Sequence record: MW286157.1
Source of the DNA: Escherichia phage vB_EcoM-BECP11
Length of the DNA stretch: 64,000 bases
Strand: one strand, 5' to 3'
A program made the translations under genes and the position numbers. Positions within the stretch are counted from its first letter, which is position 1; each line of letters starts with the position of its first letter. This document shows positions 6,821 to 31,444 of this stretch, in pieces. The notes under the pieces were generated by a model. The model did not search any database, was not told where the DNA came from, and saw only the letters and a program-made list of their open reading frames with translations.

Positions 6821-7384
6821 ATGAGCTTATTTGAAGATGATATTCAATTAAACGAGCATCAAGTTGCTTGGTATTCAAAAGATTGGACAGCTGTCCAATC
6901 TGCTGCTGATTCTTTTAAGGAAAAAGCTGAAAATGAATTTTTTGAAATAATTGGAGCTATTAATAATAAAACTAAATGCTCTATTGCTCAAAAAGATTAT
7001 TCAAAATACATGGTTGAGAATGCATTATCACAATTTCCTGAATGCATGCCAGCTGTATATGCGATGAATTTAATTGGATCAGGTTTAAGCGATGAAGCCC
7101 ATTTTAATTATCTGATGGCTGCTGTTCCTCGGGGTAAAAGATATGGTAAATGGGCAAAACTGGTCGAAGATTCTACCGAAGTATTGATTATTAAGTTACT
7201 TGCTAAGCGGTATCAAGTTAATACAAATGATGCAATTAACTATAAATCAATTCTTACTAAAAATGGAAAACTTCCTTTAGTATTAAAAGAACTAAAAGGT
7301 TTAGTCACGGATGATTTTTTGAAAGAAGTGACTAAGAACGTAAAAGAACAGAAACAACTCAAAAAACTAGCATTGGAATGGTAA
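6821..7384 (+). CDS. 62: clamp loader small subunit gp62
   Basis: 187 aa directly after gene 44, coupled start. Confidence 0.8.
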
Positions 7385-26770: not shown

Positions 26771-27031
26771 ATGATTAACATCAATTCAAAATATTTAAAT
26801 CGTCTAATAGATGGTATAAGGAAGCATACTAATAAGCAAGATAATCTCGATGTTATGGTAACAGGAGCTGAGCTCCTTCATAAGCTTTATCTTATAAGTG
26901 ATACTATATTAGCAATTAAACGAATTGAAAAACAATCATATCACAGTAATACAGATACGGTAATTACACTAGATGAAAGTGTCTGTAAATTACTAATTAA
27001 ATTTGAGGAAGCTATTCGTGGAAATAACTAA
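26771..27031 (+). CDS. hypothetical protein, 86 aa (dexA.2-like)
   Basis: first of three tandem small genes between dda and dexA. Confidence 0.45.
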   Translation: MININSKYLNRLIDGIRKHTNKQDNLDVMVTGAELLHKLYLISDTILAIKRIEKQSYHSNTDTVITLDESVCKLLIKFEEAIRGNN

Positions 27032-27263
27032 AGACCAGTTTTATCTTCTTCAAGATAAAGTTAGCGAAATTTATGAATTAGCTTATAGTAAAAATCGTAG
27101 AAATGTAAAAATTGAATCTAGTAAGTTAATGCTTCAATTAGAAGAAATTGAACGAGATTTAATTGCGTTAGAATTCTTTTGTGGTGAAGCGAAAACTGTC
27201 ACAATCAGTGATTATGTTTTAGGTGAAATTAGCCATCTTTATAAGGCGATTATTAATGATTGA
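27018..27263 (+). CDS. hypothetical protein, about 81 aa (paralogue family)
   Basis: probable GTG start 27018 after SD gaggaag; C-terminal half similar to next ORF. Confidence 0.4.
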   Translation: MEITKDQFYLLQDKVSEIYELAYSKNRRNVKIESSKLMLQLEEIERDLIALEFFCGEAKTVTISDYVLGEISHLYKAIIND

Positions 27264-27498
27264 ATTAAGTTGGTACCAGTTTAAATCTCTTATGGCAAAT
27301 GTTAAAGCTGTCATTGAAGAAAATCCAGGACCTGAAAATGTAACTATTCGTGAAAAAGCTTCAAAGATAGTATACAGTCTTGAAGAGATACAAAAAGATA
27401 TTGAATCTATGGCAAAATTTATTGATGAGCCTATTAATAAAGTTTATATCCAAGATTATACTGTAGGTCAAATTCGCGATTTAGCAAGGAAAATTTAA
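27256..27498 (+). CDS. hypothetical protein, about 80 aa (paralogue family)
   Basis: ATG 27256; motif LEEIQKDI...YIQDYTVGQIRDL resembles LEEIERDL...TISDYVLGEISHL of upstream ORF. Confidence 0.4.
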   Translation: MIELSWYQFKSLMANVKAVIEENPGPENVTIREKASKIVYSLEEIQKDIESMAKFIDEPINKVYIQDYTVGQIRDLARKI

Positions 27499-28181
27499 TG
27501 TTTGATTTTATTATAGATTTTGAAACAATGGGAAGCGGTGAAAAAGCAGCTGTTATTGATTTGGCTGTAATTGCTTTTGACCCTAATCCAGAAGTCGTTG
27601 AAACATTTGATGAATTAGTTTCACGTGGCATTAAAATCAAATTTGATTTAAAAAGCCAAAAAGGACATCGTCTTTTTACTAAAAGCACTATCGAATGGTG
27701 GAAGAATCAATCTCCTGAAGCTCGAAAAAATATTGCGCCATCAGATGAAGATGTAAGCACTATCGATGGTATTGCAAAATTTAATGATTACATCAATGCG
27801 CATAATATCGATCCTTGGAAATCTCAAGGCTGGTGCCGTGGAATGTCGTTTGATTTTCCAATTTTAGTCGATCTCATTCGCGATATTCAACGTCTTAACG
27901 GCGTTTCCGAGAATGAACTTGACACATTTAAGTTAGAACCATGTAAATTCTGGAATCAGCGTGATATTCGTACCAGAATTGAAGCACTTCTGCTTGTTCG
28001 TGATATGACCACATGTCCTCTTCCAAAAGGAACTTTAGATGGATTCGTTGCGCATGATTCCATTCATGACTGTGCGAAAGACATCCTGATGATGAAGTAT
28101 GCTTTGCGCTATGCTATGGGTCTTGAAGACGCTCCATCAGAGGAAGAATGCGATCCTCTGTCTCTTCCAACAAAACGATAA
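27498..28181 (+). CDS. dexA: exonuclease A (DEDDh 3'-5' exonuclease)
   Basis: 227 aa; N-terminal FDFIIDFETMG exo motif; size and position as T4 DexA. Confidence 0.8.
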   Translation: MFDFIIDFETMGSGEKAAVIDLAVIAFDPNPEVVETFDELVSRGIKIKFDLKSQKGHRLFTKSTIEWWKNQSPEARKNIAPSDEDVSTIDGIAKFNDYINAHNIDPWKSQGWCRGMSFDFPILVDLIRDIQRLNGVSENELDTFKLEPCKFWNQRDIRTRIEALLLVRDMTTCPLPKGTLDGFVAHDSIHDCAKDILMMKYALRYAMGLEDAPSEEECDPLSLPTKR

Positions 28182-28244: not shown

Positions 28245-28757
28245 ATGAAAATTTATCGTGTTGAATCATCGTTTAGCGCATTAAATGATGATAGTGGTAT
28301 AGTGAAAATTAGGCAAGAGTTATGCGTTCAATCAACTCCTTATCGTGGATTTGATTCTATGAAAACTCGAACTTGGCTAAAATTTTGTGGTATTAATTCA
28401 TCGTCATTTCATCATCATAGCGATAATTATGAAAGCCATGAAAGTATTCCTATTCCACACGATGATAAGTTATTAGTTGAAAATGCTAATGATGTTATTA
28501 AAACTAAATGTAATAAAGATTATTCACAATTTGAAAATTATATTCCATTGTGGCTTATTGCATTATATCATTTTGCTTTCGCTAGTGAATATGATATGAT
28601 GAGATGGTTCACCCGAGAAGAGCGTGAAGACTTAAAAGATCGTGGAATGTACATTGCGATTTATGAAGTTCCTGAAGATGAAGTTATCATTGGTGGGCAT
28701 CAAGTAATGTTCCGTAAATCCCATGCTGAACTTGTAGATTTTATTGAAATGAGATAA
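28245..28757 (+). CDS. hypothetical protein, 170 aa
   Basis: ATG 28245 after SD gaggataa. Confidence 0.5.
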   Translation: MKIYRVESSFSALNDDSGIVKIRQELCVQSTPYRGFDSMKTRTWLKFCGINSSSFHHHSDNYESHESIPIPHDDKLLVENANDVIKTKCNKDYSQFENYIPLWLIALYHFAFASEYDMMRWFTREEREDLKDRGMYIAIYEVPEDEVIIGGHQVMFRKSHAELVDFIEMR

Positions 28758-28759
28758 TT

Positions 28760-29302
28760 ATGAAATTTAATTATAATCCTGAATACACACCAAATCCTGT
28801 AGATAAACCGTTTGATATGGATATAGCAAGCATGTACGGCACTCTTGTTAAACCATTAGAAATTAAGGAAACATTTATGACTGCTCGGACCATCGAAACT
28901 GGCAAAACCTACAAACTGGTTGAAACTGAAATTAAAACTGCTGAATTAAATTTGGGTTATAAAGCATTGACTAGTGTTTTTGGTGAAGGCGAGTTTGTGG
29001 TTAAAAGCTTTTCAAAAAGTAACTGGTATGATAAAAATAAAGCTTACGTGATTCGAGCACATCGCTTAGATAATGATGAAGTAATTAAAACTATAGTCTT
29101 TGAAGCAGAGCTTATCCTCTTTCAAGAATGCGATCCTACTGACCTTTTAACTCGTGCGGTAGCTATCAAGACTCCATTTATTTCGGTCTGTGGTTGGGTA
29201 ACAGACCAGTGGGTAGAAGACGGTGTTGAACTTCTGAACGTTGTTCATGCAGGTGATTTTAGTGTAGTACCTCGTAGTGCGGTGGTAGCTATTTTAAATT
29301 AA
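28760..29302 (+). CDS. hypothetical protein, 180 aa, paralogue A
   Basis: C-terminal TDQWVEDGVELLNVVHAGDFSVVP shared with ORF 29379-29876. Confidence 0.5.
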   Translation: MKFNYNPEYTPNPVDKPFDMDIASMYGTLVKPLEIKETFMTARTIETGKTYKLVETEIKTAELNLGYKALTSVFGEGEFVVKSFSKSNWYDKNKAYVIRAHRLDNDEVIKTIVFEAELILFQECDPTDLLTRAVAIKTPFISVCGWVTDQWVEDGVELLNVVHAGDFSVVPRSAVVAILN

Positions 29303-29304
29303 TA

Positions 29305-29340
29305 GTTTACAAACTCTTGGGACCAGAGTATAATGGTCCC
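29305..29340 (+). promoter_or_regulatory. early promoter (-35 GTTTAC 29305-29310, -10 TATAAT 29329-29334) inside stem-loop gggacca/tggtccc
   Basis: 7 bp inverted repeat 29319-29325 / 29334-29340 flanks -10. Confidence 0.65.
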
Positions 29341-29378
29341 GTGGAGTATAAAATCTTTTTAACAAGTGAGAGATAACT

Positions 29379-29876
29379 ATGATTATTAATATTGGTGAAA
29401 TTGCTCGTGTATCTGATAAATCCCGTTCTAAAGCAGCAGGAAAATTGGTAGAAGTTGTAAGCATTCAGCTTAAACATGGTGTTAAAGATGAAGATTCTGA
29501 AGTAAAAGTGCGTATCATTCCTAAAGATGGAAAGTCTAAACCTCAGTTTGGCTATGTTCGTGCGAAATTTCTTGAATCTGCGTTTTTGAAAGCTGTTCCT
29601 GCTAAAGGAATTGAAACGATTGATACTTCGCATGTAGGTGTAGACTTTAAGTGGAAACTCGGTCAGGCTATTAAGTTCGTTGCTCCTTATGAATTCGAAT
29701 TTACTGAAGATGAGGAAGGGGTTGTTCAAAAACACCGTACTCGTGCTATGTGCGCATACATTACTGATCAGTGGGTAGAAGACGGTGTTAAGCTGTACAA
29801 CGCGGTATATTTAGGAACATACAAAGTCATTCCTGAAAGTTGGATTAAACACTATAGCAAAGCTCGCTATGCATAA
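29379..29876 (+). CDS. hypothetical protein, 165 aa, paralogue B
   Basis: C-terminal TDQWVEDGVKLYNAVYLGTYKVIP; identical 21 nt core cagtgggtagaagacggtgtt at 29207 and 29769. Confidence 0.5.
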   Translation: MIINIGEIARVSDKSRSKAAGKLVEVVSIQLKHGVKDEDSEVKVRIIPKDGKSKPQFGYVRAKFLESAFLKAVPAKGIETIDTSHVGVDFKWKLGQAIKFVAPYEFEFTEDEEGVVQKHRTRAMCAYITDQWVEDGVKLYNAVYLGTYKVIPESWIKHYSKARYA

Positions 29877-31072: not shown

Positions 31073-31444
31073 ATGTTTAAAATCGGTAAGAAATATCGCA
31101 TTTGTGAAGGTGAAGAACAGAAATATCTACTTTCTGCTAGTAATAGGAATAGTTCTATTAATGCTGTAATATCTACAAGCGAATTTATCGTTGAAGATAT
31201 GAAAGGTCATAATGTTACGATGATTAGTACAGCGTCTGGAAATAACGGAAAAATTCTTCACAGTATGCAGAGTAATGTTCTAATTTATGATGAAGAATTT
31301 GACTTCTTCAAAGAAGTTTCCGAAGATTTTGATTTTGAATGTACCATTACTATGAAATCTGGTGACCCTCTTTCTTTTACAGTTAAAGATGAAAGAAGCC
31401 GCTTGAGAATTATTAGTCTTCTTCAAGCCATTAAATTTGAGTGA
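31073..31444 (+). CDS. hypothetical protein, 123 aa
   Basis: ATG 31073, 2 nt after upstream stop. Confidence 0.5.
   Translation: MFKIGKKYRICEGEEQKYLLSASNRNSSINAVISTSEFIVEDMKGHNVTMISTASGNNGKILHSMQSNVLIYDEEFDFFKEVSEDFDFECTITMKSGDPLSFTVKDERSRLRIISLLQAIKFE

Follow-up and report, generated by a model that had tools for sequence, protein, structure and literature searches.

In phage T4, the neighboring genes motB.1 and motB are the closest described counterparts of a tandem gene pair that we analyzed in Escherichia phage vB_EcoM-BECP11 (sequence record MW286157.1), within a stretch of 64,000 nucleotides (nt) referred to here as the window. Patterson-West et al. (Viruses 2021; PMC7827196) reported that T4 MotB and MotB.1 have a conserved C-terminal domain in common and different N-terminal domains, named duplication of one gene from the other as the probable origin of the pair, and sorted homologues into one MotB category and three MotB.1-like categories, including one with "another distinct NTD" (N-terminal domain) and one that is a 29-amino-acid (aa) RB69 peptide. 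T4 MotB is a non-specific DNA binder that purifies together with H-NS/StpA; it is toxic to E. coli and increases burst size twofold (PMC6070864, PMC7827196). Kim et al. (2025; PMC12152347) described an LSm-like fold family of Tevenvirinae made up of GoF together with MotB.1 and Frd.2. EF-P and eIF5A, with a KOW-like domain I followed by OB-fold domains, are also among the closest known systems.

The pair in the window is real, was correctly observed in a first-pass annotation made from the sequence alone, and is already known, since both the shared C-terminal domain and the duplication were published in PMC7827196. New here are an exact 21-nt identity that is private to this phage and looks like a conversion of 9-21 nt from motB into motB.1, a motB promoter with its -10 hexamer in a hairpin loop that is inverted in the closest relatives, and an extra G in the T4 reference sequence.

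The gene pair and its shared C-terminal domain

The window derives from a Tequatrovirus, a T4-like phage: over the 2 kb of this locus, many Tequatrovirus genomes show 94-98% identity, and the + strand of the window is the T4 early transcription direction. Both open reading frames (ORFs) were found with the positions, lengths, and strand given in the first-pass annotation (Table 1), and they are the tandem early genes motB.1 (ORF 28760-29302) and motB (ORF 29379-29876). The MotB assignment follows a match to phrog_1671 (E 5e-76), coverage of profile positions 1-162 of 162 in Pfam PF17613 (motB; 331 bits, curated cutoff 25), a KOW/SH3-like N-terminal domain followed by a C-terminal barrel, and a location between dexA-motB.2-motB.1 on the upstream side and cef on the downstream side, behind an early promoter of its own. 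MotB.1 matches phrog_2333 (E 4e-76), and its C-terminus matches both PF17613 (35.3 bits, cutoff 25) and the MotB PHROG (7e-17). The PF17613 match spans only residues 142-175 (profile positions 120-153), neither the full length nor the KOW part of the profile; since only this C-terminal stretch fits, MotB.1 has a domain in common with MotB and is not its orthologue. PF17613 is present in nearly all of 233 MotB.1 homologues, and motB.1 lies directly upstream of motB in the window as in 17 of 17 related loci.

The window motB is the orthologue of T4 motB, with 89% identity, the same genomic slot, an identical promoter region, and the same architecture of KOW-like domain and C-terminal barrel, whereas the lengths differ (165 aa versus 162 aa in T4), with changes mostly where the C-terminal domain has its variable hairpin. 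The window MotB.1 likewise occupies the slot of T4 MotB.1 and of categories 2-4 of Patterson-West et al. and ends in the same 'DPTDLL...GWVTDQW(I/V)EDGVELLNVVHAG..SVVPRSAVV' C-terminus. Its C-terminal domain is of the 'DPTDLL...VELLNVVH...VVPRS' subtype and resembles MotB.1 more than MotB (E 6e-35 by hhalign with T4-type MotB.1). However, its N-terminal 110 residues could not be aligned to T4 MotB.1 by BLASTP, and the motif 'DMDIASMY' stands ahead of the barrel, in an N-terminal extension, rather than behind it as in T4-type relatives. The window protein probably belongs to the "another distinct NTD" category of PMC7827196.

As the first-pass annotation had claimed, similarity between the two proteins is found in their C-termini and not in their N-terminal halves. 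BLASTP aligned MotB.1 residues 142-173 with MotB residues 123-154 (17 of 32 identical, E 9e-12), and hhalign of a MotB.1-like alignment (20 sequences) against a MotB alignment (35 sequences) gave 38 columns at 98.7% probability (E 2e-16), which define what we call the core; neither program aligned the N-terminal halves. A hidden Markov model of the core, run across the whole window, matched the motB.1 and motB copies only. Among distinct core sequences, synonymous codon differences outnumbered non-synonymous ones in MotB.1 (2757 versus 1146) and in MotB (1719 versus 1394); purifying selection acts on the core in each gene. The MotB.1 C-terminal domain as a whole is almost invariant in 20 diverse homologues.

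Alignment beyond the core was provided by bridge clusters, single-gene relatives from Klebsiella T4-like phages. Their N-terminus is of the MotB type ('VYVS..S.SKVAG') and their C-terminus of the MotB.1 type ('DPTDLL...GWV(T/S)DQWIEDGVELLN...VPRS'), and in some cases they also carry the long hairpin insertion of the MotB type. The bridge family aligned with MotB over its full length (133 columns, E 1e-26), with 'DPTDLLCHAVRIETPFL' opposite 'DFKWKLGQAIKFVAPYEF', and, at 71% identity over 56 columns (E 1e-28), with the MotB.1 C-terminal domain in its entirety. Via the bridge, the MotB.1 stretch 'DPTDLLxxAVxIxTPF' falls opposite this same MotB segment, a register that a permissive direct hhalign comparison reproduced. 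Furthermore, AlphaFold2 (AF2) models of both C-terminal domains contain five strands in the same order (MotB: 97-112, 115-134, 137-144, 147-152, and 156-159; MotB.1: 133-137, 142-153, 156-163, 166-171, and 175-179), the first hairpin being longer in MotB by an extension of ~17 residues (residues ~104-121). The mean predicted local distance difference test score (pLDDT) of the MotB model was 79, with 82-94 in the C-terminal domain. A Foldseek search with the MotB.1 model retrieved T4 MotB.1 (E 7e-6, a match that partly spans the C-terminal domain) and a MotB (E 4e-5). Together, the bridge alignments and the AF2 strand order point to a complete small domain as the shared unit, at residues 124-179 of MotB.1 and 88-159 of MotB. 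Judged from sequence and predicted structure, this unit is more than a motif and less than the whole protein (~56 aa in MotB.1, ~72 aa in MotB).

The first-pass annotation had proposed looking for the domain in other phages. When 1.84 billion representative proteins were searched exhaustively with a profile, it turned up in only 32 clusters at 50% identity, and it was C-terminal in every genuine match; one apparent outside occurrence, in the 141-kb phage DCP80, proved to be from a Gaprivervirus, a member of the Tevenvirinae. No relative was found among PDB chain sequences, where the sole match, to a protein kinase at E 0.003, was taken as noise, and a weak match to Pfam DUF4978 was dismissed likewise. 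Orphan ORFs of 29-76 aa that consist of the module core alone are annotated in several phages (e.g., RB69ORF012c, 29 aa) and may be frameshift remnants or sequencing errors of the kind described below for T4. A profile search with a 45-column module returned only seven short orphan ORFs, which give no basis for a census.

The N-terminal half of MotB.1 is modeled with the elements expected of an LSm/SH3-like domain, at moderate confidence (pLDDT 67-83). Compared with the published LSm-like family, sequence support for the window MotB.1 is weak and model confidence moderate: an hhalign extension into the N-terminal domain against T4-type MotB.1 was carried by the C-terminal domain, and hhalign of the window GoF against the MotB.1 alignment gave no significant match. 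RNA-related activity has been shown for no wild-type member of the GoF/MotB.1/Frd.2 family. A 123-aa ORF at 31073-31444 (+), downstream of goF and a 39.2-like ORF, is weakly similar to the MotB.1 N-terminal barrel (hhalign, 73 columns, E 2e-4, 47% probability) and may be an additional LSm-like early protein. Across the 17 related loci, the motB.1 slot is strongly mosaic, holding proteins of the window type (~180 aa), the T4 type (143-167 aa), and forms of ~250 aa with two N-terminal barrels ahead of the shared module; in RB69-like contigs, a third MotB-like gene (139 aa) lies directly downstream of motB. The motB.1 slot is a domain-shuffling hotspot.

Ancestry, the 21-nt repeat, and the T4 record

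Single MotB-like "transcription modifier" genes in Klebsiella and Enterobacter T4-like phages resemble both members of the pair, combining the MotB KOW domain with a C-terminal domain of the MotB.1 subtype at a syntenic position, but these phages have a single gene rather than a pair, and the LSm-like domain is absent. In the Klebsiella Kanagawavirus vB_KM5a1-KLB31, for example, a single gene (positions 2501-2956 of the record) encodes a KOW domain and a 'DPTDLL...ELLN' C-terminal domain and is flanked by a motB.2-like gene and cef, at the position occupied by two genes in the window. This locus looks like the unduplicated ancestral state, and the duplicated domain with a diverged partner that the first-pass annotation described is borne out as a homologous domain on different N-terminal domains, with a single gene in more distant T4-like phages. 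The simplest history suggested by these sequences is one ancestral gene followed by tandem duplication in E. coli T-even lineages. The ancestor would have been a MotB-like gene whose product had a KOW-like N-terminal domain joined to a C-terminal barrel by a 'DxDxxSMY...DPTDLL' linker. The downstream copy (motB) would have kept the basic KOW domain while its barrel diverged and acquired the hairpin extension; the upstream copy (motB.1) would have kept an ancestral-looking barrel while its N-terminus was replaced by an LSm/SH3-like domain, and this N-terminal end of the protein would then have been reshuffled repeatedly.

The identical 21-nt core reported in the first-pass annotation was recovered by exact search: positions 29207 and 29769 are the two places in the window with an exact copy of the 21-mer CAGTGGGTAGAAGACGGTGTT, with no further copy at up to three mismatches and none expected by chance (100 shuffles). 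Both copies encode QWVEDGV inside V/I-TDQWVEDGV. Codons are identical between motB.1 and motB at seven of seven positions in the run and at three of eleven of the remaining identical residues. In the closest relatives, phages MLF4 and KMB42, motB carries CAGTGGGTAGAAGACGGTGTT and motB.1 carries CAGTGGATTGAAGATGGTGTT, retaining ATT GAA GAT where the window has GTA-GAA-GAC; the window motB.1 therefore differs from theirs at three sites within 9 nt, all changed toward the phage's own motB copy. This allele was absent from 298 phage records (best full-length match, 97.2%). With background divergence of ~1.7% and the paralogue 562 nt downstream, we roughly estimate the chance of three private paralogue-matching changes at ~2e-4. 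Since the three changes are clustered, private, and all match motB, we infer a gene conversion or template switch of 9-21 nt from motB into motB.1, a recent and very short event. The exact 21-nt identity is private to this phage. Other motB.1 alleles with valine at this position (GTT) are uninformative as evidence of conversion, as a single transition from ATT suffices. The scans of viral contigs yielded 17-19 genomes, too few for a formal test of gene conversion across lineages.

The T4 reference (NC_000866.4/AF158101.6, positions 7291-7305) contains an extra G in the motB.1 core (TGGATTGGAAGAT), which produces the 119-aa, "13.8 kDa" MotB.1 (P39415) without the last ~28 residues of the module. 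Thirteen other T4 records, as well as RB55 and RB59, have no extra G, and their motB.1 product is 143 aa long with the module intact; the extra G is probably a sequencing error in the T4 reference. Because Kim et al. reported MotB.1 as 13.8 kDa and took the coordinates of their amber constructs from NC_000866.4 (PMC12152347), they probably expressed the truncated 119-aa ORF, which suggests that their constructs lacked most of the module.

Other accounts of the similarity fare poorly against these data. A short convergent or chance motif, without common ancestry, could be argued from the ~38 residues over which direct alignment is significant, but E-values run from 1e-11 to 1e-28, intermediates unite features of both proteins, and the genes stand in tandem with the same predicted strand pattern; the profile and bridge alignments refute it. 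That motB.1 is a decaying duplicate, a pseudogene-like remnant of motB with residual similarity, might appear to explain the truncated protein annotated in the T4 reference, the module-bearing orphan ORFs, and the absence of a laboratory phenotype in T4 delta-motB.1 (PMC12152347). However, only one database record shows the T4 truncation, hundreds of phages as well as the window have an intact ORF, and the C-terminal protein sequence is nearly invariant despite many synonymous changes, leaving decay very improbable. Equally improbable is a function of the 21-nt direct repeat in its own right, as an element of DNA or RNA (a protein-binding, recombination, or regulatory site): while the seven shared codons and an exact 21-mer unexpected by chance would fit such a role, the identity is confined to one genome, the closest relatives differ at three of 21 positions in motB.1, and across phages synonymous sites in these codons are free to vary. 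This last account is largely refuted, and the repeat is not a conserved DNA element.

The motB promoter and the surrounding features

The first-pass annotation had also placed a stem-loop promoter between the two ORFs, and both elements are present there, the -10 hexamer of a promoter that matches 11 of 12 consensus positions lying in the loop of a covarying hairpin (Table 1). The annotation of Yersinia phage fPS-2 has a "promoter" feature at the equivalent position. Nine distinct hairpin sequences from several Tevenvirinae genera had 100% of cells paired, compared with 33-52% in slid controls, and five of the seven pairs have changed on both sides (e.g., GGGACC/GGTCCC, GGGGTC/GACCCC, and GAGAGCC/GGCTCTC). 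The intergenic RNA fold has a predicted energy of -26 kcal/mol (z -4.1). Only the sense strand contains G-U pairs, a pattern that favors an RNA structure; a DNA cruciform was rejected on the same evidence. An intrinsic terminator was likewise rejected, since a scan found no terminator-like site and the U-run begins 14 nt past the stem. A transcript from the motB promoter would probably start in or just after the 3' arm, so only motB.1 read-through RNA could form the hairpin, which on this covariation evidence probably acts as RNA in read-through transcripts; a 3' stabilizer, a processing site, and an attenuator are candidate roles. By sequence, motB has its own strong early promoter, with the -10 element in the loop of a hairpin that would form only in motB.1 read-through RNA.

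In about 10 of 312 records, including those of the close relatives MLF4, KMB42, KIT03, fPS-2, G4507, and NiC89, the loop is exactly reverse-complemented (ATTATACTCT), so that TATAAT at 17-nt spacing is lost and TATACT at 15 nt remains; other close relatives and T4 have the loop in the orientation of the window. A second predicted hairpin, closer to the motB start, could modulate motB translation according to the folding model.

Gene order in the annotations of phage KMB42 and T4 is dda, dexA.2, dexA.1, dexA, motB.2, motB.1, motB, an ORF, cef, and goF. The range covered by the first-pass annotation, from 28245, also takes in motB.2, which is unrelated to the pair: hhalign found no similarity to MotB or MotB.1, so it was rejected as a third paralogue, and it had no Pfam match. 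Upstream of dexA, in the dexA.2/dexA.1 region (26771-27498, +), three consecutive overlapping ORFs of 86-91 aa show a similar pattern by eye ('...EEI..D...') and may be a tandem triplet of paralogues.

Table 1. Features of the motB.1-motB locus in window coordinates, with the evidence for each.
Feature	Position	Strand	Evidence
dexA	27498-28181		Annotated order in KMB42/T4
motB.2 (170 aa)	28245-28757	+	61% identity to T4 MotB.2; phrog_1106 match
motB.1 (180 aa; 'MKFNYNPEY...' variant, phrog_2333)	28760-29302	+	Syntenic slot, flanked by motB.2 and motB
MotB.1 N-terminal domain, residues 44-123; predicted small beta-barrel plus one helix, LSm/SH3-like	28889-29128	+	
MotB.1 C-terminal domain (shared module), residues 124-180, 'DPTDLL...GWVTDQWVEDGVELLNVVHAGDFSVVPRSAVV'	29129-29299	+	AF2, bridge alignment
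Module core in MotB.1, residues 141-178	29180-29293	+	hhalign, core hidden Markov model
21-nt repeat, first copy (motB.1)	29207-29227	+	Lineage-private substitutions at 29213, 29215, 29221
motB early promoter, TTTACA-17 nt-TATAAT	29306-29334	+	11/12 consensus match, best in region; identical in T4
Conserved hairpin, 7-base-pair stem, 10-nt loop AGAGTATAAT (29325-29334) holding the -10 hexamer	29318-29341	+	Covariation, fold
Second predicted hairpin, motB Shine-Dalgarno region (GAGAGA) paired with upstream U-run	29353-29374	+	Minimum-free-energy fold only
motB (165 aa)	29379-29876	+	PF17613, 331 bits, full length; phrog_1671; 89% identity to T4 MotB
MotB N-terminal KOW/SH3-like domain, residues 1-68, basic	29379-29582	+	
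MotB C-terminal domain, residues 88-165, shared module plus hairpin extension	29640-29873	+	AF2, bridge alignment
21-nt repeat, second copy (motB), inferred conversion donor	29769-29789	+	Identical in window, MLF4, KMB42

Role of the shared domain

The two paralogues differ markedly in charge. The predicted isoelectric point of the MotB N-terminal domain is 9.75 and that of its C-terminal domain neutral, while the MotB.1 C-terminal domain is at 4.3 and the whole of MotB.1 at 4.9. The conserved core is acidic (TDQWVEDGVELLN), and the positive charge of MotB is concentrated in the KOW domain. Together, these features favor the KOW domain as the DNA binder and the shared barrel as a protein-protein surface, for a common partner or for homo- or hetero-oligomerization, a reading of the sequences that we prefer tentatively, at somewhat less than even confidence. 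The barrel would dock either the other paralogue or a partner common to both proteins in a MotB/H-NS/DNA complex. Distinct activities would come from the N-terminal domains, namely non-specific DNA binding by the MotB KOW domain and binding of an RNA or protein ligand by the LSm-like domain of MotB.1. Alternatively, the shared C-terminal domain may be a cold-shock-like OB-fold through which MotB and MotB.1 bind DNA or RNA, with the N-terminal domains as modulators; this published suggestion seems to us possible and rather less likely than docking. On the docking reading, a further and unlikely variant is that acidic MotB.1 pairs with, or competes against, basic MotB on the H-NS/DNA complex, with recurrent short conversion keeping the interfaces matched. 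The first-pass annotation's "accessory specificity modules" found no support, specificity being shown neither in our analysis nor in the literature.

Taken as a whole, an explanation that combines tandem duplicates of a MotB-like gene, conversion, a docking barrel, and a separate motB promoter is, in our judgment, probable. Several points weigh against it. Significant direct similarity between MotB and MotB.1 is confined to the core (36-38 residues), so the restriction to a short core that the first-pass annotation had weighed against its own reading stands for direct comparison; it does not stand for the bridges and strand order, which extend the similarity to the whole C-terminal domain and not to the full-length proteins. 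Homology beyond the core depends on transitive alignment and low-confidence columns, the structural likeness of the C-terminal domains depends on strand order and Foldseek, and confidence in the MotB.1 model is moderate (pLDDT 63.6 on average, 60-68 for the C-terminal domain). Docking or heterodimer formation is proposed from charge and conservation; experiment has assigned DNA binding to neither MotB domain, Patterson-West et al. favored a nucleic-acid-binding OB-fold for the C-terminal domain (PMC7827196), and T4 delta-motB.1 grows normally (PMC12152347). Finally, the conversion is a single event in a single genome, and our data are also compatible with acquisition of the allele by recombination with an unsampled phage.

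The probable error in the T4 reference affects published work on MotB.1, in which the 13.8-kDa product is a protein without the conserved module. If MotB.1 does pair with or compete against MotB, the published T4 MotB.1 null results would need repeating with the full 143-aa protein, and the two early genes would be a phage example of an interaction surface undergoing concerted evolution. The inverted loop found in some phages is a natural experiment on the strength of the motB promoter. For work on host takeover by T4, the analysis provides as by-products a domain boundary and an order of events, from a single KOW-bearing ancestor through duplication to replacement of an N-terminal domain, and charge and conservation suggest a docking role for the shared domain, with the KOW domain as the more likely DNA-binding element of MotB.

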